From positions 97,793 through 161,792 of the forward strand of contig JASGJN010000025.1 in assembly GCA_049840735.1 (NCBI GenBank): DNA of 64,000 bases, given 5' to 3'. The notes beneath the pieces are model-generated. The model had not been told where the DNA came from, made no database searches, and saw only the letters and a list, made by a program, of their open reading frames with translations. Position numbers and translations under genes: made by a program. This document shows, piece after piece, positions 8,559-59,413 of this stretch; positions within the stretch are counted from its first letter, which is position 1, and each line of letters begins with the position of its first letter. This DNA comes from Anaeromyxobacter sp. (GTDB lineage Bacteria > Myxococcota > Myxococcia > Myxococcales > Anaeromyxobacteraceae).

Positions 8559-9530
8559 CGGCGGGCGAGCTCCTGGAGGAGGGAGGCGTCCACCATACCC
8601 GAAAGCTCGCCGGGTGGGGCGAACCCGAGCGCCTGCGCGTGCCTGGCCATCTGCACCACCTGTGTGGGCATGGGCATCCCGGGTGGGCTCGAGGCGCGTG
8701 AAGGCGTCGGCCACGATCTCGTCGGGGAGCCGCTTCCCGGCCGCGCGCTGCAGCCCGTCGTTCACCGCGCGCGCGAAGGCGCGCGGGTCCTGCGCCCAGC
8801 GCGCGGTGAGCGCCAGGTGCGCCTGCAAGAGCCGCCGCACGTCCTCGCGCCGCTCGCGCAGCGCGCGCGTCGAGGCCACCAGCACGGTGGTGGGGAAGGC
8901 GCCGCCGGGCCAGAGCGTCCGCTCGTCCACCAGGATCCGCCCCCGCCCCTCCGCCACCAGCCGCGAGGCCCACGGCTCCGGCACCCAGGCCCCGGCCAGC
9001 TGGCCGCGCACGAAGAGCGAGAGGATGTCGGCGTTGGCGAGCGGCGTGACCCGCACCTGGTCCGGCCCTTCGCCGTCCTCCAGCCCCTGCGCGTGCAGCC
9101 AGGTGCGGAGCGCCACGTCCTGCGTGTTGCCCAGCTGCGGCGACGCCACCCGCTGCCCGCGCAGCGCGGCCGGCGAGTCCACGCCGGCGCGCACCACCAG
9201 GGAGGCGCCGCCCGACGCGGCCCCGGCGATGATGCGCAGCGCCTCGCCGTGCGTGCGCAGGTAGGCGATGGCGGCCGGCCCCGGGCCCACGTAGGCCACG
9301 TCGAGATCGCCCGAGAGCAGCGCCTCCATCTCGGCCGGCCCGGCGTTGAAGAGCCTGACCTGGAGGCGGCCGTCCACGGCGCGCGCCAGCGTGCCGTCGG
9401 CCACGCCGGCCAGCGCCTGCGCGTGGGTCAGGTTGGGGAAGTGGCCCAGCCGCAGCGGCCCCCCGGGGCCGGGATCGCGCCGGCAGGCCGCCGCAGCGGC
9501 GAGCGTGAGCAGCACCAGCAACCGTCGCAT
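8555..9530 (-). CDS. SsuA/NrtA-like ABC substrate-binding lipoprotein (frameshift near 8675)
   Basis: LGHFPNLTHAQ, PQLGNTQDVALR and WVPEPWASR motifs. The C-terminus continues in another frame (…GMVDASLLQELARR*) and its stop overlaps the DUF2238 ATG. Confidence 0.85.
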
Positions 9531-9548
9531 GCAGATCCTCCGGCGGCG

Positions 9549-10310
9549 TCAGGCCGCCTCCAGGAGCCCCCAGCGCCGCCGCACCCGCAGCTCCAGCCAC
9601 CGGAAGAGCACCTGATCCACGGCCACGCCGATGACCACGATGCAGGCCATCACGCCCATCACCTGGGCGGCGTCGAGCAGCTCCCGCCCCTGGTTGAGCA
9701 GCTGCCCCAGGCCGCCGGCCACGAAGATCAGCTCCCCGGCCATGAGCGCGCGCCAGGCGAAGCTCCAGCCCAGCTTGAGCCCGGTGAGCAGCCCCGGCAG
9801 CGCCGCCGCCAGCAGCACGCCGGCGTGGAAGCGCAGCCCGCGCACGCCCAGCGTCCCGGCGGCGCGCAGCAGGATGGGGTCCACGCCGGAGACGGCGTCC
9901 TCGGCCGCGATGGCGATGGCCAGGAGCGAGCCCATCACCACCACGAAGACGATGGCCGACTCGGAGAGCCCGAACCAGAGCAGCGCCAGCGGCAGCCAGC
10001 AGATGGACGGCAGCGCCTGGAGCCCCAGCACCACCGGCCGGAGCGCCTGCTGCACCAGGCCGCTGCGGGCCATGACCACGCCCAGCGGCACGCCCAGCAG
10101 CGCCGAGAGGCCGTAGCCCTGCGCCAGCCGCGCCAGCGAGCGGCCCAGGGCGTCCCAGAGCCGGCCGTCGGCCGCCATCTGGGCCACGCTGCGCGCCACC
10201 GCCGGCGGGCCGGGGAAGAGCCAGTGCGGCCAGGGGCCGACGCTAGAGAGGAGCGCCCAGGCCGCGATCGCCAGCAGCAGGAAGCCCACCGTCGCGAGCC
10301 GATGCCTCAT
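9549..10310 (-). CDS. SsuC/TauC-like ABC permease
   Basis: LQALPSICWLPLALLWFG and AWRALMAGE motifs. Confidence 0.9.
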   Translation of the reverse strand: MRHRLATVGFLLLAIAAWALLSSVGPWPHWLFPGPPAVARSVAQMAADGRLWDALGRSLARLAQGYGLSALLGVPLGVVMARSGLVQQALRPVVLGLQALPSICWLPLALLWFGLSESAIVFVVVMGSLLAIAIAAEDAVSGVDPILLRAAGTLGVRGLRFHAGVLLAAALPGLLTGLKLGWSFAWRALMAGELIFVAGGLGQLLNQGRELLDAAQVMGVMACIVVIGVAVDQVLFRWLELRVRRRWGLLEAA

Positions 10311-11190
10311 CCCCCACCTCCTCCGCGCCGCGGTCCGGCGCCGGCGCCGGCAGCGCCTGCCCGGCCCCCTCGGCCCGGCGCAGCTCGCCGCGGATCTGGC
10401 GGGACAGCTCCACCAGCGCCTGGTCGTCCGGATCGCGCGGCCGCGGCAGGTGCACGTCCAGGTCCTGCAGCACGCGGCCGGGGCGCGCCGCCATCACCAC
10501 CACCCGGTCCCCCAGCACCAGCGCCTCGCGCACGTCGTGGGTGACGAAGACCACCGTCTTGCGCGTGCGCAGCCAGATCCCCTGCAGCAGCTGGTGCATG
10601 TGGCTGCGGGTCTGCGCGTCGAGCGCCGCGAACGGCTCGTCCATCAGCAGCACCGCCGGCTCCATGGCCAGCGCGCGGGCCAGCTGCACCCGCATGCGCA
10701 TGCCGCCGGAGAGCTGGTGGGGCAGGGCGTCCTCGAACCCCTCCAGGTGGACCAGCGCCACGTGCTCGCGGGCGCGCGCCAGCGCCTCGGCGCGCGGGAG
10801 GCCCCGGGCGCGCAGCGGGAAGGTCAGGTTCTGGCGCACGGTGAGCCAGGGGAAGAGCGCGTGGTCCTGGAAGACCAGCAGCCGGTCCGGCCCGGGGCCG
10901 CGCACCTGCACGCCGTCGATGTGGATGGAGCCGCCGCTGGGGGCGAGGTGGCCGGAGAGGGCGTAGAGGAGCGTGCTCTTGCCGCAGCCGGAAGGCCCCA
11001 GGAGGCAGACGAACTCGCCGGCGTGCACGGCGATGTTGACGTCCTTGAGCGCCACCACGCCGCGCTTGCCGAAGCGGTGGCCGACCTGCGAGACGTCGAT
11101 CTTGGGCGGGCCGGCGCGGGCGCGACGCGGCACCAGCCGCCCGGGCCGAACCGGGCGACCCGCCAGCCACGAACGGAGCTCGCGCCACAC
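10243..11190 (-). CDS. SsuB/TauB-like ABC ATP-binding protein
   Basis: [24 protein letters not shown] and VTHDV motifs. Confidence 0.92.
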
Positions 11191-11256
11191 GCAGCGACAA
11201 GGTGCGTTGGCACGGGCAGGCCGGCCTGCCCGGCTGCCTGCCCCCGCCTGGCCGGA

Positions 11257-12204
11257 TCACGGGCGGTAGACGAGCAGCCGGCAGGCCAGGCCGCCGTTGC
11301 GCACCGCCAGCGCCTCGGCCGGGGCGGCGGGGAGCAGCTTCTCCAGCCCGCGGTCGGGGCCCAGCACCACCGCGGTCCAGCCGCCCAGCCGCGCCAGCAG
11401 CGAGGCGAGGGCCTGCCAGGCCTCCCGCGTGCCCTCGTCGAGCCGCACGCCGTAGGGCGGGTTCACCGCCAGCAGGCCGGGCCCGTCGGGCGGGCGCACC
11501 CGGCCCGCGTCCTCGCGCGCGAAGGTGACGAGCTCGGCCACCCCGGCGGCGGCGGCGTTCTTCTGGGCCAGCCGCAGCGCGCCGGCGTTGCGGTCCGAGG
11601 CGTGGATGGGGACCTTCACCGGCCGTGCGCGGCCGGCCAGCGCGGCCCGCAGCCGGGCCAGCCGGGCCGGGTCGTGGCCGGGGAGCCGCTCCAGGGCCAG
11701 CGGCCGCTCCAGCCCGGGCGCGCGGCCGGCGGCGGCCAGCGCGGCCTCGATGGCCACGGTGCCCGAGCCGCACATCGGATCCAGGAAGGGCCGGTCCCCG
11801 GCCCAGCCGCCGGCGCGCAGCAGCGCCGCCGCCAGCGTCTCGCGCAGCGGCGCGGCGCCGACGCGGGCTCGCCAGCCGCGCCGGTGCAGCGGCTCGCCGG
11901 CCGCGTCCACCGACAGGGTCGAGGCCCGGCCGGCCGGGCGCACCAGCAGCTCGGCCCCGCCGGCGCGCCGGGCCGCGGCCCTGCGCGCGGCGGGCAGCTC
12001 GGCCGCGTCGCCGGTCCAGAGCCGGAGCAGCACCGAGTCGGCCAGCCGCGAGGCCAGGCAGGCCATCGCGGCGGCGTCCACGCCCTCCGCCTCGGCGCCG
12101 CCCGGCACCGGCCGCGCGCCCAGCCCCAGCTCGCGCAGCTCGCCCGCCAGCAGCGGCTCCAGCCCGGGCGCGCAGGCGCAGAAGACCGACTCGGCGGCGC
12201 TCAC
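11257..12204 (-). CDS. Class I SAM-dependent RNA methyltransferase (RlmL/UPF0020-like)
   Basis: LHRRGWR, APLRETLAAA, DPMCGSGT and NPPYG motifs. Confidence 0.9.
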   Translation of the reverse strand: MSAAESVFCACAPGLEPLLAGELRELGLGARPVPGGAEAEGVDAAAMACLASRLADSVLLRLWTGDAAELPAARRAAARRAGGAELLVRPAGRASTLSVDAAGEPLHRRGWRARVGAAPLRETLAAALLRAGGWAGDRPFLDPMCGSGTVAIEAALAAAGRAPGLERPLALERLPGHDPARLARLRAALAGRARPVKVPIHASDRNAGALRLAQKNAAAAGVAELVTFAREDAGRVRPPDGPGLLAVNPPYGVRLDEGTREAWQALASLLARLGGWTAVVLGPDRGLEKLLPAAPAEALAVRNGGLACRLLVYRP

Positions 12205-34459: not shown

Positions 34460-35606
34460 CTCGCCGCGCCCTCTTTGGTTCCTTCCCCGGGATGGGCTTG
34501 TTCATCTTGAGCTTGAGCATCTGGAGTCTGTCCCAGGGGAAGGATTTGAGACGGGCGTAGGCGGGGAAGGATTTTTCTTTGTCGTTTCGGCCGCGAAAGT
34601 ATACAGGTGTAGGGATCGACGGCGTATCGGCCGGCGGGATTTTCGGGCGCGGAAGACGGTGCCACCGGCCTTGTCGGAGACGATCATGCCGTACTTTTGG
34701 ACGGCCTTGGCGAGCATGCGGGCGTAGGGATCCATCTGCATCTTGTCGAGGTCGAGATCGGCGGGGAGGCGGAAGATCGCGCCTTCGGGGATGGCGTAGG
34801 GGTTCTTGGCCGGATCGATGTGGCCGTCGGATCGCTGGGCGGGGAAGGAGTAGTAATCCCACTTCATCGCCTCGACCAGGAGGAGGTGGAGGGCGTGGTT
34901 GACTTCACCTTTGAGCTGCTCGTCGATGGTGATGATCCCGGCGAGGAAAGCCAGGCTGGTGGCCTGGGTGCCGAACTTGTAGCCTTCCTTGGTGGTGGGG
35001 AAATAGCCGGGGTTTTTTCGAGGAATGCTTCGATGTGGCCGCCCCACACCACCCCCATTCATCAACTTCAACGCCGGCGAAGTTGCACACCTTGGCGCCG
35101 GTTTTCTGCATCTGCCAGAACTCCCAGTATTTGCCGGTGGAGGGCTGGTAGACGACGGCTTCCATGTCGGTGCCGCTGGCGGCCTGGAAGTTCTCGGGCA
35201 GGGGGACGTTTTCCCACTGGGCCTGGAGGGGTTTGAAGGTCCAGTCGGGCTTCTTCTTGTCGAAGACGCGCACGCGGACGGTGGGGACGTTGGCGGGCAC
35301 CTGGTAGACGGCCGGCATGTAATGGTTCACGTTGACGTTGACGGTGCCGTAGTAGGCCTTGATCTGGCGCTGGAGTTCCTTGACGTAATCGGCGGAATGC
35401 TCTTCAAGGGGGGCGTCGGGCGGCAGGGGTTTGTGGACGTAGCTGTCGGCGGCGAACTGCTTGCCGGGCTCGATGATGATTGAAGGGGGATCGCCGGGAG
35501 CACGTTTGAAAGGCTCGGCGGTTTGCACAAGGCCGTAAGCGAAAACAATGCAATCGAAACGATGCTGGCGGTGAATCTGATAAGCTGGGCTCGTCGGCAC
35601 ATCATG
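34460..35606 (-). CDS. Secreted hypothetical protein (frameshifted)
   Basis: Coherent protein-like segments (GTDMEAVVYQP…YWEFW; GEVNHAL…FPAQRSDG…PEGAIFRL…AVQKYGMIVSDK). Confidence 0.6.
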
Positions 35607-35704
35607 GCAAGCCACTCCGGGGGGGGTGAAACAGGCGGGGATGATACGAGCTGGCACGGCCCAATTCCATCGACGCCAAGCAATCCGCAGGCGGCGGCGG
35701 TGAT

Positions 35705-37105
35705 TCAGCAGGAGGCGGAGTTGGTGGAGGAAGGGGAGCGGATGTGAGCCGAAGCCGGATCACACAGCGGCACAGGCCGTCGAAGCTGACGGGCTTGGTG
35801 ACGTGCTCGATGAAGCCGGTTGCATGGCTCTTTTCGACGTCGGCGACGGTGCCGTAACCCGAAACGGCGATGGCGGGGAGAGCCCTGCCGGCGTTTCTGA
35901 GGTACGCACAGCAGATCGTGGCCGGTGCCGTCGGGGAGGCCCAGGTCGGTGATCAGGAGGTCGAATCGCTGGTTCAGCGTCCGGTTCCGGCCAGGACGGA
36001 ACTGGCGGCCTCGACGTCGTGGCCCTCGGCCGCCAGGAGTCAGGCGCATGATCTTGAGTGTGTCGGGGTGGTCTTCAACCAGCAGGACGCGAAGGGGCCT
36101 GGTGGCGGAAAGGGCTGGCGTCTGAACATCGGTTGAAGACGGTTCGAAAGCGGCCAACGGGGCTTCGGCGCTGATCGGGGCGAGCGGAAGCTCAACGGTG
36201 AACGTTGTCCCTTTCCCGGGGCCTTCGCTGTGAACGATGACCGTGCCGTCGTGCTGTTCCACCAGTGCTTTGGTGATGGCCATTCCCAGGCCAAGCCCGC
36301 CGAATTGACGCGTGATCTCCGGGTCGGCCTGTTCGAAGGGCTGGAAGACTTTGCCGAGGAAATCGGCGTTGATCCCGATCCCGTGGTCGTCGAACGAAAT
36401 CCGCAACCGACCTGGAGTCCCCTGGCGATCGGCGGGCAGCACCTGGGCGAGCACCTCGATGCGGCTGTCGACGGGACTGAATTTGCTGGCGTTGCGGATC
36501 TTCCAGAAGATCTGCTGGACGCGGGCGGCGTCGGCGAAGATGGGTAGGGGCGCAGGACCGTCTGGATCACCAGCGTCTGGTTGCGGGCGTCGAGATTGGG
36601 GCAGACGATGGCGGCGGCGTCGCGAAGGCATCGGGCGGCGTCGATGACCTGGCGGACCAGTTCGATCTTCCCCTGGGCGATGCAAGGTCCAGAAGGTCGT
36701 CGATCAAGCGCTTTTCGAGCGTGACGTTGCGGGCGATCATCGCCAGGTCTTCCTGCACATCGGGTGGAAGGCGTGGATCGCTTCTGAGCGACGTTGCGGC
36801 GGCGAGCACCGGTGTCATCGGCGTGCGGAGTTCGTGGGACAAGGCGGCCAGGAATTGATCCTTGGCGGCGCTGGCGGCCTTGAGCTGGTTTTCAATGCGC
36901 TTTCGCTGCGTGATGTCGCGCAGGATGACCTGCATGGCGCAGCACACCTTGGGTTCGTCGATCGGGGCGGCGGTGACTTCGACGTCGCATGGCTCGTCGA
37001 GGCGGATGATGGCCTCTTCGGTCGGCGGGACCTGTTCGCCCATGGTCAGGAGTTCGATGCGATGGCGGATGGAATCGTGGAAGTCGGGGTGGGCGAGTTC
37101 GAAGG
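35705..37105 (-). CDS. Hybrid PAS histidine kinase/response regulator, 5' truncated and frameshifted
   Basis: LSHELRTP, NASKFS, GGLGLG, LLVEDH and TDLGLPDG motifs. Confidence 0.85.
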
Positions 37106-39043
37106 GCCAAGGTTGAGTACCAGGCGGCGTGTAATGCGCCAGTCATCCTGCACATAGAAGCCGAAGTAGAGATACCTCTGTGTCACTTCGCGAATGGTTT
37201 CGGTGCGGCCCAGGAGGGCCTGTCCGAGGAGGAATGACGCGAAGCTGCTGCCTCCGCTGGCGGGAAAAACAGTGGAACCGGGAATGGAGGTGGAGAGGAA
37301 GCTGAAATCGGCGCGACCGGCGATGTCCTGCTGACCGAAGCCGTTCGCATTCTGGTTCTGATGTTGGAATCCGAACTTGAAGGTGTGTCCTTTGCGCAGA
37401 TAGCTGAAGTCGTTCTTGATGCCCCAGCCGGGTTGATCGGTGCCGTTGTAGGAGGCTGAACCCCAGGCAGTGTATTCAGTGAAGTTGAGCGTAGGGAAGT
37501 TCTGGTTGCAGTCGATTACGTTGGGGATGCAGAGCTTGCTCTTCCAGTTCTTGTCAACGTTGATGGAGTAGCTGTTCTTGCGGAAAGTATTCCAGGCGAA
37601 AGAGAAGTGGTTGATCATGGACGAGGTGACAGTCCAGTCATGCGTCACGCGGTAGGCGTTGGTGTCCCACTGCTGGATCTGTCCGTTGAAGAGGGGCTCG
37701 GGAAGGCCGGGGAGGCCATCGGGGCCTGGCTTGTTCTTGAAGGCGGTGGAGTTCCAGAGGAAGCTGACGCGGTGTTTGAGGTTGAAGACATGATCGCCTT
37801 TGACGCTCCATTTGTCGGTGGGCGAAAGCAGGCTGCCGGCGTTGACCAGATAGTTACTGACGACATAGCCGCGGGTGCCAACGGCAGCGCCGCGATTGGG
37901 TTGGACGATGGCTGCCTGGGTGGAGGCGGCGGCGGCGACGGCCGAGAAGCGATTGACGGGAATCTGATTGTCGGGGAAGATGTCGCGGATGAAGCCGCTG
38001 CCGTTGGGGTTGGCGCGCGTGGAGGCTGGATCGTAGATGGGGATCATTCGATTGTTGGGGTCGATCCAGTTACGGAAATCACCTTTGTACATTTCGGGCG
38101 TGGGGATGGTGAAGATGGAACCGTTGCGGCCGACCCGGTTGCGGAACCCTTCATAGGAGACGAAGTAGAAGGTGCGGTTGCGTCCGTTGTAGAGCTTGGG
38201 GAAGTAGAGCGGGCCGGAGGCGGAGAAGCCGAAATCGTGTTGGCGGTAGATGTTCTTGGTGCGGGCGAAGAAGCCGCGGGCGTCGAAGGCGTCGTTGCGG
38301 GCGAAGTCGTACAACGAACCGTGGAATTTATTGGTGCCGGATTTGGAAGCGAAGGTGAGGATGCCACCGCCGGCTTGCCCGAACTCTGCTTTGAAGCCGT
38401 TGGTGTCGACGGTGAATTCCGTGAGGGATTCGAGCGATGGTGTGTTGAGCGCGGCTTCGGCGGTGTCGCCGGAACGATTGGTGCCGACGCTGTGGCCGTC
38501 GAGCGTGGCGTCCCAGGCGGCGACCTGTCCGCCTCCGAGCGATAGGGCTTGCCCGGTACCCTGTGCTTCGGGAACTACGGCGACGAGATTGAACGGGCTG
38601 CGCATGGAGCCAGCCACTTGCAAGGGTAGTTCGTCTACCATGCGGGTCTCGACTTGCGTGCTGACCTTGGCATCTTCTGTCTGCACAGCATTGAGGGCCG
38701 CGGTGACTTCAATTGCTTCGGTGACCTGGCCGAGTTGGAGTTGGGCATCGACGCGGATGGTGCTGGCGGCGGAGACCATTACGTTCTGGCGAACGAAGCG
38801 TTTGAAGCCGGAGGCGGTGACTTCGAGACGGTAGGCTCCTGGGGAGACGTTGGGGAAGGTGAACTCGCCGGTTGTGGTAGCGAGGGTTCGCAGGGAGGTG
38901 TTGGTGTCGATGTGGGTGAGCGAGATTTCGGCAGCAGCGATGCCTGCGCCCGCCGGATCGAAGACGGCTCCGGTGACATTGCCGCGTTCGCTTTGCGCGA
39001 ACGCAAGGGCGGCGAGAAAGACGGCGAGGGCGAGGGTCCTCAT
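37106..39043 (-). CDS. TonB-dependent receptor (acidobacterial Oar/CarboxypepD_reg type), 3' truncated at the junction
   Basis: Signal peptide, carboxypeptidase-regulatory-like domain, KSGTNKFHGS, YVQDDWRITRRLVLNLG, then an abrupt break. Confidence 0.9.
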
Positions 39044-39140
39044 GTGACGTGGTCTCCCAGGGGTTGTAAATTTTCGGAGGCCAGTATATCAATTGCGGGG
39101 AAATGTGCAAGTACGTGGGAGGGGCGGTGGTTCGCCGCCG

Positions 39141-39887
39141 CTAGCGTGAGCCGAGCGGTTCCATGCCGCTGCGGGTGATGGCGGTGTGTGCGTCTTTGGA
39201 GGTGAGGAAGAGAAGGAACTGTTTGGAGAGGCGGGGCTCCTTTGCATTGGAAAGCACGGCGGCGCTGAAGACCTGGACGAGCTGAATTTCAGCGGGGATG
39301 GTTCCAATCAAATCGACGCCGGGCCGGTTGAGGAGTTCGCTCACGGGGAGTACCGCCATCTCGGTCTCGCCGGCGGCGATGGCGGTTGCGCCGCCGTTGT
39401 TGAGCTTGCTCACGACCTCCTCCGTAAGCCCAAGTCTGGGGAGCAGCCTCTCCTTCATGTATATGGCGGAGGTGCTTTGGACGCCGATGGATTTTGCACG
39501 GAGCAGAGTTTGCTTGAATGCTTCTACAGTGCTGATGTCCGGACGTGGGGCGCCTGCGCGGACAGCAAGCCCCAGCGGGACGCGAGCGAGATTGACTTTT
39601 GTGCCCGGAGCGATCCTTCCCTCTGCGGCCAGTTCGTCCAAACCGTCCCGGGACATGATCACAACGTCGGCGCGAACACCTTTGCGAAGCTGCGCACCGA
39701 TGGTGGTGGGGCCGGGACCCTGGGAGGGACCACGGAGTGTTGTGATGCTGATGCTGTTCGCTTTTTCAAAGGCGGGCCGCAACTCTTCGTACGCCGTCAG
39801 GAAGCCACCCGAGGTGAAGACGGTGAGTTGGGCATGGGACGCGCACGGCAGGGCGAGGGCGAGCAGCAGTTTCCAGCACTGAGACAT
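39141..39887 (-). CDS. ModA-like substrate-binding protein
   Basis: Signal peptide; VFTSGGF, AVRAGAPRPDIST and VSELL motifs. Confidence 0.85.
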   Translation of the reverse strand: MSQCWKLLLALALPCASHAQLTVFTSGGFLTAYEELRPAFEKANSISITTLRGPSQGPGPTTIGAQLRKGVRADVVIMSRDGLDELAAEGRIAPGTKVNLARVPLGLAVRAGAPRPDISTVEAFKQTLLRAKSIGVQSTSAIYMKERLLPRLGLTEEVVSKLNNGGATAIAAGETEMAVLPVSELLNRPGVDLIGTIPAEIQLVQVFSAAVLSNAKEPRLSKQFLLFLTSKDAHTAITRSGMEPLGSR

Positions 39888-39990
39888 GCGGCACAGGATA
39901 GCAGAGGAATTCCAGGATGGTTGCAGAGTGCGGAGGCGTCCCACTATAGTGCGAGAGTCCATTGGATTTTCTAAAGAATTGGAAACATAT

Positions 39991-42900
39991 ATGCCGAATG
40001 TCCACATCACGAAGTCTGATTCGTTTCTGGGTGGGAACGAATCGTTGAGCCTGGATCTGGATTCAGCGGCGAGTCCGGTGGTGGGTGTGGCGTTGTTGAA
40101 TGACACGCCTTTTCCGCCGGGGACGATTCGGCTGGGCACGGTGAAGCTGTCCGCTTCCGGGAGCGGTGACATTTCTTTTGGCGGCGGCGGGACCAAGGGG
40201 AGTGTCGGCTTTAATGCGAGTGGCGGGGCGCGCGCCGGGATTGGTGTGTATGGTTCGTCAGAGGATCTCTTTGCGGATCTGGGTGGAGCGAACCAGTTGT
40301 TGAGCGGCTTGACGTTGGATGATGCAGGCGTGCATCGCTATGTGGCGTTGTATTGGGGCTATGATCTGGCGGCTGCGGCAAAGGGCGCAATGGCGCTGGG
40401 GGTTGGCGGGTCAGCAAAGTTCGGCGTGAGCGGATCGAGCGAGGGGGTGTTCGCGTTTGTGAGGGCATACGCGAATGAGCCAGGCGCGCGGAGCGCCGTG
40501 GAGGATGTTGTGAAGAACTGGCGGCTGCCGCGGCAGATTGACGATTTGTTGACGCTGCCGCCGGGATCATGGGCGATGGCGGAGGTGGATGGTTCCTTTG
40601 CGGCGACACTGGGCGCGCAGTACGGCTACAACTTCAACTGGATTCATCAGGTGGGATTGGCGGGCCTGTCAGGCGATGTGGGGTTGAAGATTCAGGCCGC
40701 GGTGGAGGTGGAGTTGGGGTTCCATGCGAGCGGCAAGTATTTTGTGGTGGTGGGGCGCGATTCGCTGGATGCGGGGAATCAGGTGTTGCGCGTGCGGCTT
40801 CACAAAATGTCGCAGCGAGGGTTCAGCTTTGCGTTGAATACGTCGCTGGGAGTGACGGGTTCGACAGGCGTGTTGCTGCCGCAACAGTTGGATCAGTTGA
40901 TTGCCGGACTATTTGGGACGGCGGCTCCGCAGGTGGTGTCCGATCTGGCGATTTTGCGCAAGGTGGTGGATCCATCGGCGCCGCTGAACAAACTCGCCGG
41001 TGATTTCCTTGTGGATTTTGCACAGAAGGAATTGAACACCGTTGTCGATGTGAAGCAGAAGTTTCAAGAGGCTCAGGCGCGCATCGTGAGGTTTCTTGAT
41101 TTGTGGGATGGCCTGGGTGCGAAGGCGGCAGCAGTGTTGTGGGGGGCGGCAACAAAGGCCGATCCGCAGTTTCAGAGCACGATCAGCGCGCTGGCGGCGG
41201 CGAATGGGAATCCGGCGGCGTTGCAGCAGATTGTGAAGGCGCAGTTTGAACAGGTGGATTTTTTCAGGTCCGGCATCGGGCAATTTCTGGAGACGCAGGC
41301 GTCGAATGGCGTGGTGGCGCTGCTGGCCAATCACGCGGATCTGTCGATGATCAGTGTGCTGGCGCAGAAGGTGAAGGATGTTCTGGATGCGAAGGTAGTT
41401 ACGAATCTTGCGAAGTTCATCGACGATAGGCTGGGACTGGACAAGATTCGCACCCTGACGTTAGATCAATTGGATGACCGGCTGAAGGAGAAGCTGTCAG
41501 ACTTTTTGCAGAAGCCGTTGGACAACGCGGGGTTGACGGAGGTAAGGCAGACGATCAATGAACTGCTGCAGAAAGGCGACAAGCTGTATGCCGAAGCGTT
41601 GAAGGCGTTGAACAACACGTATTCGTTTGAGCTGAATGCGACGTATCAGAAGACGGTGACGAATGATGCCTTGATCGATGTCAGTTTTGATTTTGCCAAG
41701 AATGCCGGGCTGGGGCCGTTTGCCAGCGGAGCGGTGGATGGGGATTTTGTGAAGCTGCTGACGGTACCCATGGCGGGCGTGACGCTGAATGCGGCGACGT
41801 TGACTCATGGAGTGAAGCGGCAAGCTTCAGTGAGTTTCAATATGCCGTACTTCTCGTCGTCATCGGCTGGTGTGAATGAGGCGATCGCGAAGATGGATGT
41901 GAAGGCGGAGAACGGCGGGCTCTTTCTCTTTGATCTGCAGGCATCGGATACGCAGACGCAGGCGCGGAACAACGTGAATCGCTGGTCTGGGCGGTTCGCC
42001 GTGGGAATGAAGATGGCCGCGCTGGGTAGCGGTGTCCGTTCGTACGGAGATGCAGACGAGTTGGGCCGCGAGATGACGGTGAGTTACGGGTTTCGGCGCG
42101 CGGTGAAGGGATTGCGCACGGCGAGTCTGCTGAATCAACTGCAGCCGTTGCAGCAAACCTATTTTCCGGGCCAGTTCAACGCGGGTGGGAAGCCGACGCT
42201 GTTCCAGTGGGTGACGGATATGGACAAGCTCGCCGACGGCGTGGAGAACAACGGCACGGGGACGATCGGGAACACGCTCATCGGATTGGATGTGGCGGCG
42301 CCGGGGACGGTGTTGGCGGGGTGGTTGAATGCTCCTGCGGATGAGAAGGATGGCGCGTATTTGCGCATGTCCGTGGCGGTGCAAGGGGCGCTGCGGCGGC
42401 TGATTCCGTACTGCTATTTCCAGGATGTTTCGCGCTACAAGGGCGGGAATGCGGCGGCTGCGGCGGTGTTGGTGTATGCGTCGATTCCTCCGGTGAATGA
42501 GGTGGTGGTGGGGAGCGGCGGTTTTCCCGTGGCTGCGGCGCATCCGTCGTACTACTGGGATGTGTTTGATCGTGATCTGCTGCGGGCGATGGTGAGTGGG
42601 AATCCGAATACGGGGAACCGGCTGGTGTCGGCCATGGCGAATGTACGGAACCTGATGCTGGCGTTGGATGGGATGCATGGAGAGGCGCAGTTTTATGAAG
42701 GGTCGCAGGCGGGGCGTTTGATGAGCGCCGCGCTGAATTCGACAATCGGGCGGGCGGATCTGAATGCGTTGTTGTTTACGGAGGCGGAGGTGTTGAAGAG
42801 CGCAGTGGGGGCAGGACGCGCGATGGCGGAGTTTCGTGCGAATGCGAACGAGCCGGCGAAGGCGTTGGAGGAGTTGGCGGAGTTTGGGCATCAGATTACC

Positions 42901-43173
42901 GAGGCGTTTCATGGGAAGTTGACGGGGCTGTTCAACGCGAAGGATGAGCCGGATCTGTTGCGGAATTTTGGGACGTTGGTGTTTGTGGAGGCGTCGCGGC
43001 AGTTGGTTGGCGGTGCGGTGAGCGTTGTGCCCACGGCGTCATTGGATGTGGCGGTGATGCGGACGAAGAGTGCTGCGGGGGCAGCGGTGGTGTTTCCGCC
43101 GGCGGGGTGGCCGGATGCGGGGCCTTTGGATGCGGGGAGTTTGGCGGTGGAGCAGCGGATTTTGAATGTTTAG
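39991..43173 (+). CDS. Large hypothetical protein (1060 aa)
   Basis: Uninterrupted ORF with normal composition; no recognised domain and no signal peptide. Confidence 0.85.
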   Translation: MPNVHITKSDSFLGGNESLSLDLDSAASPVVGVALLNDTPFPPGTIRLGTVKLSASGSGDISFGGGGTKGSVGFNASGGARAGIGVYGSSEDLFADLGGANQLLSGLTLDDAGVHRYVALYWGYDLAAAAKGAMALGVGGSAKFGVSGSSEGVFAFVRAYANEPGARSAVEDVVKNWRLPRQIDDLLTLPPGSWAMAEVDGSFAATLGAQYGYNFNWIHQVGLAGLSGDVGLKIQAAVEVELGFHASGKYFVVVGRDSLDAGNQVLRVRLHKMSQRGFSFALNTSLGVTGSTGVLLPQQLDQLIAGLFGTAAPQVVSDLAILRKVVDPSAPLNKLAGDFLVDFAQKELNTVVDVKQKFQEAQARIVRFLDLWDGLGAKAAAVLWGAATKADPQFQSTISALAAANGNPAALQQIVKAQFEQVDFFRSGIGQFLETQASNGVVALLANHADLSMISVLAQKVKDVLDAKVVTNLAKFIDDRLGLDKIRTLTLDQLDDRLKEKLSDFLQKPLDNAGLTEVRQTINELLQKGDKLYAEALKALNNTYSFELNATYQKTVTNDALIDVSFDFAKNAGLGPFASGAVDGDFVKLLTVPMAGVTLNAATLTHGVKRQASVSFNMPYFSSSSAGVNEAIAKMDVKAENGGLFLFDLQASDTQTQARNNVNRWSGRFAVGMKMAALGSGVRSYGDADELGREMTVSYGFRRAVKGLRTASLLNQLQPLQQTYFPGQFNAGGKPTLFQWVTDMDKLADGVENNGTGTIGNTLIGLDVAAPGTVLAGWLNAPADEKDGAYLRMSVAVQGALRRLIPYCYFQDVSRYKGGNAAAAAVLVYASIPPVNEVVVGSGGFPVAAAHPSYYWDVFDRDLLRAMVSGNPNTGNRLVSAMANVRNLMLALDGMHGEAQFYEGSQAGRLMSAALNSTIGRADLNALLFTEAEVLKSAVGAGRAMAEFRANANEPAKALEELAEFGHQITEAFHGKLTGLFNAKDEPDLLRNFGTLVFVEASRQLVGGAVSVVPTASLDVAVMRTKSAAGAAVVFPPAGWPDAGPLDAGSLAVEQRILNV

Positions 43174-44160
43174 ATGCGCCGGCGGCTCTTGCGGAGTTCC
43201 TCTTCTCGTTCGAGCATGATCTCGTAGTAATCGAGGGCGGCGGCTGAGAACGGGTACTTGCCGGCCGCGTACTCGTCGAGCAGCGTTGCGACCTTGCTCT
43301 CATCGAGTTTGCCTATGTTGGCCTCGCGCAGTGCTTCATGATAGTCGAACTGAAATGTCTCCTGTGCTTGCTGCCGGTCCTCGCGGAGCAATCCGTCGTC
43401 CAATCTGAGAATCTCGATCGTTCGTTGCCCGATGGTACTACCGGGCACGGCGGCTTCGATACCACGAACACCGAAGCGGATGTGTTTGTGGGGATCGCGT
43501 TCCGCGATGGTGCTGGTTGGATTGAGGAGCAGAGGTTCCTCACGCTCGTCGAGTGCGTGCGGCGAAAGATAGTAGTGGCCCGGCCACTTCTTGCTTTCTC
43601 GTGGAAGGTCGTCCGGAGGGAAATTCGCGAGTTCTACGGGGGTGAGCGCAACCAATACCAGATGGAGCTTTCCAACAGGCAGATCGAACCGGTCATTCTT
43701 TCCGAGGCCAGAGTTACAGAGTTCGCAAGCCGGAATCAAATTCCTCCAGTCGAGGGCTAACCAGAAATAGCCGGGATGGGGAAAGTCTTGGACGACGGTG
43801 GCGGCGATGGGCAGTGTTTGGAACGATGGCACACTCAGTTTGCCAGTGGCGTCCTTGTACTTTACTGCTCCCTTCGGCCGGTAATGTTCAGCGTCGGGAT
43901 GGGCGCCGGAGACTTTACGCTCACAGTACGCACATTTCCGATAGAACACTTTATGGAAGAGAAAATCCTTGAACTCCCGCCAGATCCTCTGTGCCGAATT
44001 GAAATCGTCAGTCGAAGGATGCACTTGGTCCCGCGGCCATCCAATCCTCGAATGCTGCAATGATTTTGTCAGTGCTAGCCTCCGATCGCTTCTTCCAATC
44101 ATTCCACCAAACGGCATCGGAGCCCTGAAGGATGGTGGGATTGAAGTGGATCCGGGTCAT
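43170..44160 (-). CDS. HNH endonuclease (PtuB/TIGR02646-like; frameshift near 44010)
   Basis: KCAYCE, EHYRPKG, YFWLALDWRNLIPACELCN, KNDRF and PLLLNP motifs; start MTRIHFNP at 44160 overlaps the ATPase stop (ATGA). Confidence 0.9.
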
Positions 44161-47100
44161 TGTTGTATTCCTTTGCGGAATGTTTCGCGCAACTGACGAA
44201 CTTGTGCAGCGAGCTTCTTACGGTCTGATTCTTCAAGGCGTGGAAGAACCTCGTCCAGGCTTTGGAGCAGTTCCAGCGTGCGGCGGCCCTGAGGTGTCGT
44301 CGGTGAAGGTGGGATCCGAGCTTCGAGCGTTCGCTCCAGTTTGCGGCGCTGTGCCTTCTCCGTATCGTCGAGATCGTCTCTACCGAGGAGCATCTTATAT
44401 TCGGCGATGTAGGTCTCGGTCCGGGGATCGAGGGTGCTGTTCAGATCGAAGAGCTCTCCTGCCAGTACCTGGTCCGTCCGCCCGTAGGTCATATCCGGGG
44501 AGAACTCCACCGTGGCAACTTTGCTGTCCTGGAGGGCGAAGCGCGTGACTTCGGCTTTCTCCAAACCGCCGACAATCAGGGGTGAATGGGTGCAGGCTAC
44601 GAATTGGACGTGGGGAAAGGATTGTTTGAGGCGGTACACGAGCGCTTGTTGCCAGCGCGGGTGCATGTGGGCGTCGAGTTCGTCGATCAGGACGAGGGCG
44701 AAGGCTCCGGTGGGGAGAGGATCGTTGGTGGGGTTCTGCAGGGTTTCTTTGAGGCGCTGGCAGAGGACGCCGATCCAACCGAATAAGGAGGTCAGGCCCT
44801 GGCTGAGGACTTCTATGGGGAGTCCGGCGGTGACTTCTCCTGCTGTGACGAGGACGCGGAAGTTTTGATCGACGCGGAGGAAGCGGATGTCGGGGCGGTC
44901 TGTGATGGTGCGGGCGATCTCGAAGAATTGTTCGATCGTTTTGCGTGGTAGGGGTACCGTGTCTGGTGAAGCGATGTCCCAAAATTTGATGGTGATGTCG
45001 GCAGAGCCGGAAGCGGCACGCTTGCCGTCGGGCGTGATGGCGACAGCATGGACTGCTCTTGGTGTGCGCTCGCACGCTGACGGCTGCGCGGCCCGACTCC
45101 GGCTCCCAGATGAGGATGGACCCGTTCTCGCAACCAGCCGCGACGATCCTGCCGTCGTGGGAGATGGCAACGCTGTTGATACCGTCGGGCGGGCCGTTGA
45201 ATTGGTGCATCAGTTTTCCATCATTCGGGTCCCAAACCTGAAGTTTGCCCTTGGACGTGGCGCTCACCAATTGCTTCGCCGTTGGTGTGATGGCGACTGA
45301 CGTAAGGGGCTCGCCGATCTCAATGGTGATCCTATGAGCGGCGCCGTCTGAGACGATGAGCGTGCCGTTTTCGGAGGCTCGGGCGAACGTTGTACCCGAC
45401 GTACCTTGTCGAGCGCGACAGCGGTTACTTTGGCGGCGGTGGAAGGGTTCATTTCCAGCAAGGTGTAGGCTATCGGCTCTCGCCTCCATTGTGCGTGGAG
45501 ACTCTACCGTCTTCATAACCAGAGCCGGCGATCTCTCCGTCATCACTCATTGCGACGCACAGACAGTCCGTCTTTCCCTTGCGGGGAATCTTGCCGAGGA
45601 TCTCGTTGGCAGCGGACCAAAGGATCACGTTACCAGCGCTTGAGCCAGTGGCGGTAATGTCACCGGCGGCGTTCACAGCGACACACTTGACCTTTGATTG
45701 ATGAGCCTTGAATTTGCTGATGAGCCGGTAGGAACTCGTGTCCCAACGTGCGAGGTAACTGTCATCGGACGCTGAAATGGAGGACGGCTCCATTGTTGGC
45801 AAATGCGAGACCAGTGACGCGTTGTGCATGGCCAGTGACGACTTGAACCTCCTTTACGGTGGTTGCCTGTCCTGCTTTGTCCGCCGCGTCGAGGTTGACG
45901 ATCCATTGCTTGAGGCGATCCATGCGCGGGTCGGGTTCGCCGGAGAGGAGCGAGAGGAGATCGTCGGCGGTGGGGCGGCCTTTTTGCACGATGGCTTGGG
46001 GACCGGTGGAGGGAGTCCAACTGACGGTGCGGAGTGGTGAGAAGCCGAGGGCGAGCCAGCCTTCGGCTTCCATGGGACGGCTGGGGAGGCTGATCACTTC
46101 GGCTTCGGACTGCATATCCTTGATGAGGATCTCGGTGACGTAGCCGGTGGGGTTTCTTTCCGTTGTGAGGGTGATGCGTCCTTTTGTTTTTCCCGCACGG
46201 ACGAGGCGTGCGGCGTAGTTGCGGGCATCGCTGCCCATGATGGCTACGGCGATCGCTTTGAGGATTGTGGACTTGCCAACTCCGTTATCGCCGAGGAGGA
46301 TTTTCCATTGGCCTGGGAGAAATCGAGCTCGAGTTTTTCAAATGGGCCGATGTCTTCGAGTGTCAGTCTGTGGATGCCCGGGTTGGTTTGCGTCGTGGTG
46401 GCGTGGGCTGTGGGCGTGGTGGGGGCCGGGGCTTCTTCCTTGAGTTTCCGGAGGAATTCGTTGACTTCAGGGAAACCGGCGGAGACGGGGAAGTCGAGGA
46501 CTTTGACGTTGTAGCGGCGTTCGAGCAGTTGGGCTTTGGCTTTCCAGGCGGCTCCCTGAACGGCTACGAGGGCGTAGTGTTTGCGAGGGTTGGCGCCGCG
46601 GAAGACGAAGCCTGCGAGGAAGTCGGAAATGCCCTCGAGACTGAGTCCTACGAAGAGGAATGTCCTCGAGTAAAAGCAACCTTCCATGAATTTGCCGAAG
46701 GAGATGTTGCGGGAGATGGCTTCGCGGTATTCGATGGGGGCAAAGATCAGCGATTCGGGCTTCTCCAGAACACCGTAGAGCTTGAGAAGGAACTTGCGGC
46801 GTTGGGAGAGAGCGTCGAGCAGGGGTTCGGCGTCTGTTGGGGTAGTGGAGGCCGGAGTGGGCGAAATCAGGGAAGTTTTGTTCGCAGAGGCGGTCGTAAT
46901 TGGTGGTGACGACGGCTGAGAAGCGGGTGGTCTTAAGGGCATCGTGTGCGGGTGAGGTGGCGGGGGTGTTGGGGAAGGTTTGTTCGAGGAATTGATGGAG
47001 GAGCGGGCGGTTGCCGCTGAAGGTTTCGGCGATGCCGTCGGCGGCGGCGTCGCGTTCGCCTGCCTCGAGGGCGGATTGGAAGGAGTGGGCTACTTCTTCG

Positions 47101-48163
47101 TTGATGATTTTGTGTTGCGTGGCGAATTGGATGAGGTTGGCGAGGAACTGGTCCCAGGTGACGACGCCGGCCCGGGCGCTGAGGCCGGCTCCAGCGAAGA
47201 GGACGCATTCGTCTTTGTTGCAGGCTTCGATGAGGTCGGGGGGAGGATGGGGGTGGCGGGTTTGGATGGGAGAGCCGACAGCGAATTTGGTTTCCCTGCG
47301 AACATTCGTCCCCAGTGCTGCTCGGGGGGATCGGTGGCTTGCGGGGCGACTGATGTAGGGTGTAGGGCGGGACGCTTTACGTGAGGGGTCTGTTCAATGA
47401 CATGCCTGAGAAGCAGTTCTCCTCCATTGTCAAAGCGGACTGGAACCTGAACAACACGGATGTCCCGCGTCGAGAAAGGTTTAGGGTCGAATTCAGCAGC
47501 CGGAACGACCGCATAGTGAACTTGCTCTGAAATCTCCAAGGCATCCATGTAAGGAGAGTGTTGCAGTTCATCGGCTTCAAACCCGAGAAAGAGTGCTGGC
47601 CGAACTAGAAAGGCCTCGAGGCTGGATTCAATGTCGTCTTCGTCTGTGCCTTTCAGGCTCTGCCGCTCGGCGACGGTGCCACGGATTTTCCAGATTGCCG
47701 GCCGCTGAAAGGACGCCGGCATCTTCTCATCACGCAGAAAAATGGTGGCGAAAGGGACTCGATTCCTCGCGAACTCGAGCTCGATGGCCCGATCGACGTT
47801 GGGAGTCGCAACGAAATCGGTGAGGAGTGGTATCAGTCGAAGCGGACCCACCCAGTCCCCTTCCGGTACTAGATTTCCAAATACCTCTTCTATGGCGTCT
47901 AGGACGTACATCTCCCCGGTCTTCTTTATGATGTTCTCGGGAGTCAGTTCGTCCAGATAGACCTTCGCGCGTTTCGCGATCTGCCCAAGGAAGTTCTGCC
48001 AGTGTGGCAAGCCGGCTCCTTGAGAAACTCCGGGTCCCGCGAAGACGCTGATACCTGCGCCACTGATCTGGTCGATCAGGTTTCGGATGGCGATCCGGTT
48101 GCCGGGGATTGCGAATAACTCATCCAAGAATTCCTGGGGAACGCCGCCGGAATTTGTAACCAT
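44157..48163 (-). CDS. SIR2-like x2 / ABC-type ATPase with internal WD40 repeats (~1,330 aa; several apparent frameshifts)
   Basis: FAGPGVS…LPHW; FAGAGLS…TTNYD…FLFVGLS; Walker A GDNGVGKS (46269-46292); WD40 repeats; signature LSQG; Walker B LIDELDAHMHP; H-loop THSP. Confidence 0.8.
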
Positions 48164-56269: not shown

Positions 56270-56689
56270 TTAGGGTTTTGCTTCTGCGAGATAGAGTTCT
56301 ATCCGGTCACTTGTCCAAGTTGCGACACCGCACCCGAAGAAGTCCATGTCTTCGGTCCAAATAGGGCAATTGAAAGCTAACGCCGAGGCGAGGATGGGCC
56401 AATCCTCTTCATCGCGGTTTCGAAGCCGCAAACGCGCAACGGATTCGAAATCGCTGTACAAGCCGGGTTCCAAGAGCCAGATCAATTCTGTCAACTGATC
56501 GAGGATCCTATTGGCGCCTGATGGATCAACCCCACGCTTCAACAGCAGAGCAGGAAGATGCCTACGAGCTTCATCTAGGGCCGTCGCGGGAGTTAGGAAG
56601 CGAACCGACGACGAGTATTTACCGAGCAGCAAAAGAACTTTGGAACCGAGTGCAGCGGGGATCAAAATGTTGGCGTCAAGCACCACCAT
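56270..56689 (-). CDS. PIN-domain toxin (VapC-like)
   Basis: VVLDANIL, DEEDWPILA and IWTEDMDF motifs. Confidence 0.9.
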   Translation of the reverse strand: MVVLDANILIPAALGSKVLLLLGKYSSSVRFLTPATALDEARRHLPALLLKRGVDPSGANRILDQLTELIWLLEPGLYSDFESVARLRLRNRDEEDWPILASALAFNCPIWTEDMDFFGCGVATWTSDRIELYLAEAKP

Positions 56690-56691
56690 GA

Positions 56692-56961
56692 CTAACGGTT
56701 TTGTTTTCGGTGCTGGGCGCGCTCTCGCCGGAAGTCAGCGACAATCTCATCTTCAGAGGCTCCCGCGGCTTTCAGCAACTGCCGCATTTTCTCTCCGGCG
56801 GTACGGAAGGCTTCCACGTCCTCTTGCGTCGGGGATGGCTTTGTGGGTACGTAAACCCCGATGGTCGTTCCGTGCCGTGTAATTGCGACGGGCGTCTTCG
56901 ATTCGAGGTAGGTGGAGAGGTTTTCGCGGAACTCGCGAATGCCGATTTTTGTTGTGGTCAT
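56692..56961 (-). CDS. Phd/YefM-like antitoxin
   Basis: IGIREFRENLSTYL…VAITRHG; immediately upstream of the PIN gene. Confidence 0.88.
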   Translation of the reverse strand: MTTTKIGIREFRENLSTYLESKTPVAITRHGTTIGVYVPTKPSPTQEDVEAFRTAGEKMRQLLKAAGASEDEIVADFRRERAQHRKQNR

Positions 56962-58608: not shown

Positions 58609-58642
58609 GCGGACTTAGTATAGCTTACGTACAATAATCCAG

Positions 58643-59413
58643 ATGCGGAATCTGAAGATCCTAAATCGAGCCCTGGAGCGGCTCTGGCCTCTCCTGTTTG
58701 CCAGCATTTGTCTGGTGCTGCTTGCCTTCAATCTGCGCTGGAGGAACATCACTCCCACAGACATGGCGCTGGCCGGGTTGGCGACGCTGCCGTGGAGTTT
58801 ACGGTGGTTCAGCAGCCTGGTGCAATCGATGAAATTCGGCGGTATGGAGTTGAATTTCCGCCAGGAGATGACGAAGAAGCTGGTGGAACATGAGAAAGCT
58901 GTAGCGGCCGCTCTGACCAGCGGAATCGGTAAACCAGGCGAGAAGGCGCCGCGAAAGCCAAGGAAGAAAAGTGAAGCGGTGAGCCACGGCGTGCCGATGG
59001 CTGCGGAGGATGCGGAATTAGAGACGCGTTCGATGGAGCTGGAAGAGGATATCGACGCGGGCGATCCGAACAAAGGGCATTTCGGCGGCAAAGCGCTGGC
59101 CGCATCGCGGCGTCTGGCTGCGACGGTGAAGCCGTTCCCTGGTTCCGATGATCTTTTCCGGATTCAGGCGGCTGTCGCCTCAGTGAATGCATCGAAACCG
59201 CTGTTGGACGGGACGCCGGTGATCTTCCATCTTCATCCCACGTTCACGCCGCCGGTGCGCAAAGTGGAAGTGTCGCACGGAGCGGCGCGGCTGGAATGCG
59301 TGGCCTGGGGCGCATTCACGATCGGTGTGGAGATTGAAGGAGAGGACCTGTGTCTGGAACTGGACCTGGCCAAGGACGTTCCGGACGCGCCGGCGCTATT
59401 TGTCCAGCGCTAG
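58643..59413 (+). CDS. Membrane protein with C-terminal prokaryotic YEATS (pYEATS) domain
   Basis: Two TM helices, MKFGGME, then VIFHLHPTF…VAWGAFTIGV…LELDL. Confidence 0.8.
   Translation: MRNLKILNRALERLWPLLFASICLVLLAFNLRWRNITPTDMALAGLATLPWSLRWFSSLVQSMKFGGMELNFRQEMTKKLVEHEKAVAAALTSGIGKPGEKAPRKPRKKSEAVSHGVPMAAEDAELETRSMELEEDIDAGDPNKGHFGGKALAASRRLAATVKPFPGSDDLFRIQAAVASVNASKPLLDGTPVIFHLHPTFTPPVRKVEVSHGAARLECVAWGAFTIGVEIEGEDLCLELDLAKDVPDAPALFVQR

Follow-up and report, generated by a model that had tools for sequence, protein, structure and literature searches.

A Septu-type PtuA–PtuB gene pair with added SIR2-like domains and a WD40 propeller, split by frameshifts in an Anaeromyxobacter assembly

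What kind of system is encoded by a run of broken minus-strand open reading frames (ORFs) near the end of an Anaeromyxobacter sp. contig? The stretch of DNA analysed here, referred to as the window, comprises 64,000 nucleotides of assembly GCA_049840735.1 (contig JASGJN010000025.1, positions 97,793 to 161,792) and forms the last 64 kb of a 161,792-base contig in a genome of 6.67 Mb and 26 contigs. An earlier interpretation of the window's letters and ORFs (the sequence-only reading) had joined the pieces into one protein with two SIR2 domains, an ABC (ATP-binding cassette) ATPase and WD40 repeats, followed by an HNH nuclease gene, and had proposed a new defence system. Our analysis indicates that the locus is best explained, with a probability of about 0.7 for the explanation as a whole, as a two-gene Septu-type (PtuA–PtuB) module of a distinct and widespread subfamily. 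It represents a subfamily of Septu rather than a new system, and it is picked up by PADLOC's own PtuA and PtuB models. We hold the architecture and the family assignment with high confidence.

Read in three frames, the minus strand contains a recognisable protein that runs from the start to the stop codon of the PtuA-like gene (Table 1), hopping between frames. The ORF pieces listed on this strand are 47090–48163, 46244–46942, 45762–46238, 45470–45829, 44395–45546 and 44157–45170. Four of the five pieces named in the sequence-only reading were recovered as described, and the fifth (44395–45829) proved to be two ORFs in different frames; the SIR2 stretch that it had placed in an unlisted frame is present at about 47346–46844, in the third frame, bearing GAGLS and TTNYD. 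A frameshift-aware protein-to-DNA alignment was made with the reference homolog P0001, an intact 1332-aa protein from an Acidobacteria metagenome-assembled genome (MAG) with the NCBI name ‘SIR2 family protein’. The window gene aligned end to end with P0001 residues 1–1332, with 796 of the 1313 matched codons identical (60.6%), no in-frame stop among them and an even identity along the gene. This upholds the joining of the pieces into one long gene, at the price of eight frameshifts rather than the five or six joins implied earlier. They lie near 47346, 46844, 46317, 45779, 45475, 45450, 45406 and 45057, positions accurate to about 10–20 nt, and the three at 45475–45406 are possibly fewer. The nearest related locus (L010) is only about 58% identical in protein, and a DNA search of 30 relatives returned chance matches of 30–48 bases and no similar DNA; with no close orthologous locus, the indels are therefore not placeable at base level.

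The encoded protein shows the order SIR2-like, SIR2-like, ABC Walker-A lobe, seven-blade WD40, ABC C-lobe and C-terminal helices. This order had been proposed from the letters and is borne out by Pfam, PADLOC, hhalign, AlphaFold2 models of the homolog and fold searches.

Table 1. Features of the PtuA–PtuB locus, in window coordinates.
Feature	Position	Strand	Remarks
PtuA-like gene	44157..48163	-	about 1331 codons across 8 frameshifts; ATG 48163, TGA 44159–44157
Outer SIR2-like domain (SIR2#1), degenerate	47316..48121	-	motifs GPGVS, TPNVD, KIRG; Arg at catalytic-His position
Inner SIR2 domain (SIR2#2)	46427..47267	-	GAGLS (G 47192–47184), TTNYD (N 46901–46899), LKLYG (Tyr 46777–46775 replacing catalytic His)
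ABC ATPase N-lobe	45924..46372	-	Walker A GDNGVGKST at 46292–46266
Seven-blade WD40 propeller between ATPase lobes, one helix each side	44976..45860	-	Pfam WD40 on window pieces
ABC ATPase C-lobe and C-terminal helical domain	44160..44948	-	signature LSQG, Walker B LVLIDE, DAHMH, H-loop CTHSP; Pfam AAA_21 E 2.5e-12
PtuB HNH nuclease gene	43170..44160	-	about 330 codons; one frameshift near codon 50 (about 44010–44030); PADLOC PtuB E 2.8e-32

The ATPase core identifies the larger protein. PADLOC PtuA was matched by the C-terminal piece 44157–45170 with E 3e-36 and by intact P0001 with E 2e-55, in two stretches; the PADLOC retron I-A ATPase model also matched the window (E 1e-32). A profile search of the PDB with the whole of alignment A2 was swamped by WD40 proteins, and a search restricted to the C-lobe was used instead. 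With this query, the P0001 C-lobe matched solved PtuA chains (retron Ec78, Ec83 and Septu 8ee4) with E 8e-21 to 1e-14, the retron Ec78/Ec83 PtuA being the closest solved relatives (E 8e-21 to 5e-16) and AriA of PARIS the next solved family (E 5e-5). The idea of a Septu-like ABC-ATPase and HNH pair with extra domains is thus well founded, on these matches and on the PADLOC PtuB match (E 3e-32). The residues named as essential for Eco7 PtuA in the available parts of PMC12673091 are Walker-A N95, Walker-B E396 and H400; their counterparts in the window, N626, E1159 and H1163/H1165, are all kept (GDNGVGKST, LIDELDAHMHP, CTHSP).

The second gene is tied to the first by position as well as by family. 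The TGA of the PtuA-like gene overlaps the ATG of PtuB (ATGA, 44160–44157), as had been noticed from the letters, and the PtuB reading frame then has a frameshift of its own: the ORF from ATG 44160 has 50 codons (44008–44160) and requires one frameshift to reach the HNH ORF at 43170–44117. The 50-aa N-terminus matches that of PtuB in 13 of 76 related loci, and both parts align to the intact 329-aa PtuB of L010 (172 of 328 positions identical), where PtuA spans 7001–10999, PtuB spans 10996–11985 and the ATGA overlap is also found. The HNH ORF bears the motifs CAYC...DAEHYRP...PACELCN. In Eco7 PtuB, H57 and four zinc-finger cysteines (C43/C46/C78/C90) are described as essential in the same parts of PMC12673091; counterparts of the catalytic His and the zinc-finger cysteines are present here, as compared by motif rather than by structure alignment.

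Intact homologs next to an HNH gene, for which the sequence-only reading had called, were readily found. Using the Walker-A piece 45765–46337 as query, 335 homologs were retrieved at E ≤0.001 among 2313 candidates, with P0001 the best match, and a scan of species-representative genomes with alignment A1 gave the 76 loci. By tblastn, PtuB lies directly downstream on the same strand in 48 of the 76. In an all-against-all comparison of flanking ORFs in 53 loci (L010–L062), PtuB was the sole widely shared cluster (45 loci, the next cluster reaching 7), and no conserved ORF stood beside the pair as a third gene. The 76 loci come mostly from Acidobacteriota MAGs, with others from Planctomycetota, Verrucomicrobiota, a few Proteobacteria and Bacteroidota, and one Bathyarchaeota MAG.

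How does this protein depart from a typical PtuA? Between the two ATPase lobes it carries a WD40 region, which contains four or five of the frameshifts and for which Pfam WD40 matched P0001 with E 1.2e-46. An AlphaFold2 model of P0001 residues 590–1332, built from a 37-row alignment (mean predicted local distance difference test score, pLDDT, 82.8), gave the order ATPase N-lobe, helix 157–177, propeller 180–472, helix 481–496, C-lobe and C-terminal helical domain. The propeller consists of 28 strands over residues 180–472, with pLDDT mostly above 90, and superimposes on the WD40 domain of PkwA (5yzv_A; Z 41.9, 285 aligned residues, root-mean-square deviation (rmsd) 1.7); the WD40 of Apaf-1 is among its top sequence matches. 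The spacing between Walker A and Walker B across 120 listed homologs is bimodal, at 521–541 aa in 40, 224–251 aa in 68 and unmeasurable in 12, which indicates that, in part of the family, a propeller of about 295 aa has been cleanly inserted. In Eco7 PtuA, according to the sections of PMC12673091 at hand, a two-helix coiled coil (255–310) makes PtuA–PtuA contacts and lies between ATPase segments 64–254 and 311–442. In the modelled homolog the WD40 propeller occupies the place of this coiled coil, and the coiled-coil feature of Septu is missing from the window family.

The second departure is at the N-terminus, where the label ‘SIR2-SIR2’ was supported for both domains by profile alignment and fold match. 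For the inner domain, piece 46244–46942 matched Pfam SIR2_2 (E 2e-9), P0001 residues 299–523 matched PADLOC ThsA (E 3e-25), and the model of P0001 residues 290–569 superimposed on BcThsA (8btp_A; Z 23.1, 254 aligned residues, rmsd 3.0), followed among the fold matches by DSR2, KomC, FAM118B, Avs5 and SPARSA. Alignments A1 and A3 show little or no variation at G315, G317, N412, D414 and Y453, and the window has all five residues. The last of these residues raises the question of catalysis. A histidine is the general catalytic residue of sirtuin NADases, and K(M/L)HGD of three solved ThsA chains aligns with LKLYG of the inner domain, placing a tyrosine at the histidine position. PDB entry titles such as ‘DSR2 (H171A)’ and ‘KomC(H146N)’ are consistent with the catalytic role of this histidine, and both mutants were reportedly made as inactive forms.

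The replacement is characteristic of the family. Among the 120 listed homologs, paired motif instances had Tyr at this position in 90 of 96, with Trp, Phe and His in two each; the scan used two motif patterns, and in it six TTN-type motifs lacked the second motif and the first pattern failed to match in 19 proteins. A control set was formed by those SIR2 proteins retrieved with the outer-domain query that lack PtuA motifs. The control proteins had His in 17 first domains, Tyr in one 512-aa protein and Asn in the second domains of two tandem-SIR2 proteins; two proteins retrieved with PtuA motifs had Tyr. Among the proteins found with this query, the unrelated P0146 and P0148 carry two SIR2 domains in tandem, with a canonical His in the first and Asn in the second; pairing of an active-looking sirtuin domain with a second one that lacks His may be an arrangement that recurs.

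The outer domain is a degenerate copy, altered at every motif. Its match to Pfam SIR2_2 (E 0.002) fell under the cut-off and that to ThsA in the PDB reached E 0.16; the profile of its N-terminal class aligned with the inner SIR2 profile by hhalign (Prob 98.9, E 1.7e-17, 243 columns), and its model (P0001 residues 15–275) superimposed on yeast Hst2 (Z 12.2, 218 aligned residues, rmsd 4.0). At the histidine position the window has Arg and P0001 has Leu; across 20 aligned sequences the residues tabulated were Ser in eight, Asn, His, Tyr and Glu in two each and Leu in one, and the motif Asn is kept in 8 of the 20. An outer-domain search of the representative library gave 30 matches at E ≤0.001, one of them the window's own product, and serves as a lead only.

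Could the SIR2 domains nevertheless be effectors, as in Thoeris, DSR and Sir2-HerA, the comparison drawn in the sequence-only reading? The locus would then be a dual-effector Septu in which the SIR2 domains are active NADases and activation both depletes NAD+ (nicotinamide adenine dinucleotide) and cuts nucleic acid. The full defence-type sirtuin fold of the inner domain, with Z 23 to ThsA and DSR2 and KomC close behind, the invariance of G315, G317, N412 and D414, and the TIR-like N-terminal module (PF13676/PF01582) of some members, which would fit an NAD-directed effector theme, all speak for such a system. It is opposed by the near-invariant Tyr at the ThsA catalytic-His position (His in two instances), the retention of His in the control first domains outside PtuA fusions, the His mutants listed for DSR2 and KomC, and the degenerate motifs of the outer domain. 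We regard a dual effector as unlikely. NAD+ depletion by these domains is doubtful because the inner one has Tyr for His and the outer one is degenerate, and the comparison with Thoeris-type effectors is not supported. The conservation of the NAD-pocket motifs (GAGxS and TTN(Y/F)D) points to ligand binding or assembly, and the His-less sirtuin domains are more likely to be ligand-binding or assembly modules than NAD+-consuming effectors.

The inner, Tyr-bearing sirtuin domain is constant in the subfamily, and the part ahead of it varies, as judged from 100 proteins. This part is shorter than 60 aa in 32 of them. A cluster of 23 has a domain of 109–198 aa, considered TIR-like from the precomputed PF13676 match of P0038 and the NCBI name of P0018; an EVE domain (PF01878) is found in seven, the outer SIR2-like domain in at least 11, and a domain of about 430 aa without assignment in ten. 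Double-SIR2 forms without the propeller also occur (L016, L021 and L034, about 1010–1060 aa).

A mechanism can be proposed by analogy, which we put forward tentatively, its prospects as a whole falling somewhat short of even. In the solved PtuAB, as set out in the consulted portions of PMC12673091, the ATPase forms a head-to-head dimer whose C-terminal helices hold the C-terminal domain of PtuB, and a release model for retron-Septu is described in a review, of which a part was available. By homology, the ATPase of the window would likewise dimerise head to head around bound nucleotide, its C-terminal helices would hold the C-terminal domain of PtuB, and a nucleotide-bound resting complex would keep PtuB quiet until disturbed. 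With no retron DNA serving as a lock here, the added domains become candidate sensors. The WD40 propeller would probably recognise a phage protein or control higher-order assembly; since it replaces the PtuA–PtuA contact element, binding of a phage protein could change the oligomer state and free the nuclease, and PtuB, once released or activated, would cut nucleic acid. For the constant Tyr-sirtuin domain, one possibility is that it binds NAD+ or a similar nucleotide but does not turn it over, another that it drives assembly; the sirtuin domains of ThsA, KomC, FAM118B and Avs5 do drive assembly, their solved forms being helical or filamentous. The outer module would vary in the manner of an accessory effector or sensor.

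A more specific proposal, which we consider improbable at present, is that the Tyr-sirtuin acts as a non-hydrolysing sensor of NAD+ or of a ligand derived from ADP-ribose, tying the firing of Septu to the NAD state or to an infection signal, with the WD40 propeller separately recognising a phage protein. If this were true, PtuA would be an ABC-ATPase immune receptor that takes two inputs and whose outer modules (TIR-like, EVE or a second SIR2) can be exchanged.

Several observations weigh against the assignment to Septu and the roles proposed above. The match of the window's C-lobe piece to NCBIfam PtuA (NF041760; E 5.4e-28, 98 bits) and that of P0001 (123 bits) stay below the cut-off of 500, and NCBIfam PtuB (NF041761) gives 25–27 bits against a cut-off of 150; these retron-Ec78 equivalog models are the best NCBIfam matches for the pair, yet the scores are far under their cut-offs. 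By homology, the pair can be placed in the Septu family and not with the Ec78 equivalogs. A defence function, quite probable in our judgement, is deduced from homology to Septu alone. The context of a defence island, for which the sequence-only reading had suggested a test, is not apparent around the window pair or around L010, where the neighbours are ordinary chromosomal genes: metabolic and envelope genes in the window, and genes for a TonB-type barrel protein, an aminotransferase and a BACON-domain protein in L010. A weakly LmuA-like pair lies nearby in only 6–7 of the 53 loci; it consists of ORFs of about 600–700 aa and 480–520 aa within a few kb of PtuAB (e.g. L027:2217–5914), the second matching LmuA of Lamassu with E 6e-10. 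The WD40 domain could be purely structural, and the near-invariant Tyr together with intact GAGxS and TTN(Y/F)D could equally denote a catalytically active variant sirtuin. Finally, the structure models describe the homolog P0001 and not the window's own product.

Why, then, is this copy so broken, and where does it come from? The guanine-plus-cytosine (GC) content of the window is 0.70–0.78 up to about 27,900 and 0.58–0.65 from about 28,000 to the contig end, the change taking place within a few hundred bases. The resulting 36-kb segment (28000–64000) has about 60% GC in a 74%-GC genome and a GC skew of about +0.2 whatever the gene strand; in thirty related loci the absolute skew is at most 0.09. 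Within the segment, third codon positions (GC3) show a skew that is about five- to ninefold stronger; relative to the plus strand it amounts to +0.32 to +0.53 for genes on the plus strand and to +0.22 to +0.62 for those on the minus strand. This indicates that the source genome has long had such a mutational bias and that the skew is not an artefact of sequencing. Genes of a housekeeping type lie in the segment, several of them split: pyruvate kinase, OTCase, epimerases, a histidine kinase and a protein kinase. Families characteristic of Acidobacteriota and Planctomycetota are present as well. An intact pyruvate kinase belonging to the host is encoded on contig C21. The window yielded no tRNA gene, and among its ORFs of at least 125 aa between 26.6 and 64 kb a Pfam scan revealed no integrase family. 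The segment thus looks compositionally foreign to its genome and, judged by gene content and closest homologs, appears Acidobacteriota-like; it may be a chimeric join or an acquired region.

The rest of the assembly shows comparable features. GC falls below 0.66 in 67 of 1321 five-kb windows of the genome, most of them at contig ends. Low-GC ends are seen, among others, at C4:1–30000, C19:1–25000, C22:825001–972777 (148 kb) and C25:125001–161792, which suggests that such ends are foreign or mis-joined segments; the strong skew is confined to the C25 end. Essential genes are also fragmented: rpoB, on C17, lies in two frames, rpoC is in two pieces and secA is split into at least four, with stops inside it (C17:176038–184456 and C13:628743–631214), and the low-GC start of C23 (1–5000) carries a second, fragmented rpoB/rpoC set. 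As rpoB, rpoC and secA cannot be truly broken, the assembly must have many indel errors, and the frameshifts of the PtuA-like gene are not readable as decay. The contig ends are probably chimeric, and the 8 + 1 frameshifts of this copy are most likely assembly indel errors.

The alternative is a genuine pseudogene, that is, a decayed Septu-variant operon in a horizontally acquired and decaying segment. Nine frameshifts within 5 kb, split neighbours (pyruvate kinase, OTCase, the histidine kinase, the protein kinase and a truncated barrel gene) and the intact pyruvate kinase elsewhere in the host (C21) speak for decay. The uneven spread of frameshifts likewise counts against error as their cause, the 3.3-kb neighbouring ORF having none relative to its homolog P0152 and the pyruvate kinase gene having seven and a stop relative to a 43%-identical query. 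Set against this are the absence of in-frame stops with even identity along the gene, the retention of all catalytic and motif residues, the third-codon-position skew, which implies that the genes evolved under selection, and the fragmentation of essential host genes, which cannot be biological. A related gene, in L014, is broken as well, and we judge true decay to be rather improbable. The L014 copy (L014:7001–10963, a closer full-length relative from a Bryobacteraceae MAG) is likewise spread over several frames, with a longest ORF of 436 aa over the match. The TonB-type outer-membrane barrel gene at 37049–39088 on the minus strand (CarboxypepD_reg and OMP_b-brl_4) matches profile positions 2–387 of 838 before histidine-kinase pieces begin, and is truncated or rearranged; the barrel protein of L010 aligned to 35600–39200 with 285 of 1056 positions identical, at a poor score, the alignment running into the histidine-kinase genes.

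A further reading sees in the pair the effectors of a type I-A retron (reverse transcriptase (RT), non-coding RNA (ncRNA) and PtuAB) whose RT was missed or lost. It would agree with the Ec78/Ec83 PtuA being the best NCBIfam and PDB matches and with the PADLOC retron I-A match. It is very improbable, given that a Pfam scan of 111 ORFs of at least 125 aa between 26.6 and 64 kb showed no RT family (the ncRNA was not looked for), that the 53 loci share no third ORF next to the pair, and that the N-terminus which contacts RT-msDNA in Eco7 (PMC12673091) is replaced by about 590 aa of SIR2 domains. The sequence-only reading, too, had seen no RT nearby.

Among the neighbours, an intact 1095-aa ORF at 39886–43173 on the plus strand converges on PtuB, the stop codons overlapping, and has no Pfam or PADLOC match. 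Its 18 homologs, mostly of about 1065 aa, carry no Pfam domain either; it was considered as a third component and rejected, as it was found in none of the 76 loci. Further away, 8–11 kb from the Septu variant, are a PIN_2 ORF (56273–56734, minus strand, E 2e-38) and a prokaryotic YEATS ORF (58619–59410, plus strand, E 2.9e-14), both of which may be conflict-system genes.

The Septu-type module can now be set beside known systems. It shares with Septu (8ee4/8ee7) the strong match to PADLOC models, the gene order of ATPase first and HNH second with stop and start overlapping, and the functional residues: a Walker A with Asn, Walker B DE, the DAHMH histidines, the H-loop, and the HNH His with zinc-finger Cys. 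It differs in its roughly 590 extra N-terminal residues forming two sirtuin-fold domains, in the 295-aa WD40 propeller in the place of the coiled coil, in a PtuB of about 330 aa against 216 in Eco7, and in being found mainly in Acidobacteriota, Planctomycetota and Verrucomicrobiota MAGs. The PtuAB effectors of type I-A retrons (Eco7/Ec78, Ec83) are the closest solved relatives of the C-lobe and share the residues reported as essential in the parts of PMC12673091 used here, whereas the present pair has no RT partner that we could find, lacks the N-terminal domain that binds RT-msDNA and falls below the equivalog cut-offs. With the SIR2 domains of ThsA, DSR2, KomC, Avs5 and SPARSA it has in common the defence-type sirtuin fold (Z 23 to 17) and the GAGxS and TTN(Y/F)D motifs; it differs from them in having Tyr for the catalytic His and in being fused to an ABC ATPase, with no SLOG, STAND or Argonaute partner domain. 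STAND/NLR-like sensors, such as Apaf-1 and bacterial Avs, bear C-terminal WD40 or TPR arrays, and thus also place a repeat propeller on an oligomerising NTPase, but the NTPase here is of the ABC (Rad50/SMC-like) type and the propeller is an internal insertion. In PARIS (AriA and AriB), too, an ABC ATPase scaffold holds a nuclease until triggered; that nuclease is TOPRIM rather than HNH, and PARIS is without SIR2 or WD40.

Septu ranks among the more common anti-phage systems; the forms of it that have been solved are small ATPase–nuclease complexes. A search of the full-text literature, supplements aside, found no published description of a PtuA bearing SIR2 or WD40, though an ABC-ATPase classification paper might mention such fusions. 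The Septu core is already known; the new variant is the large modular subfamily with a pseudo-catalytic sirtuin domain. Its membership of Septu is obscured by the names in current use (‘SIR2 family protein’, ‘WD40 repeat protein’, ‘AAA family ATPase’). The locus tells little of its host, and because the segment looks foreign and the assembly has many indel errors, this copy is a poor exemplar of its family. The subfamily itself shows the Septu core as the chassis of a much larger modular protein, with loci in dozens of species-level genomes, mostly of uncultured phyla from soil and water. The placing of the WD40 propeller where the coiled coil would be suggests a route by which an ABC ATPase could gain a protein-recognition surface. 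The near-invariant Tyr in place of His, seen only in sirtuin domains fused to PtuA, marks these as defence ‘enzyme’ domains that may have turned into sensors or modules for assembly.

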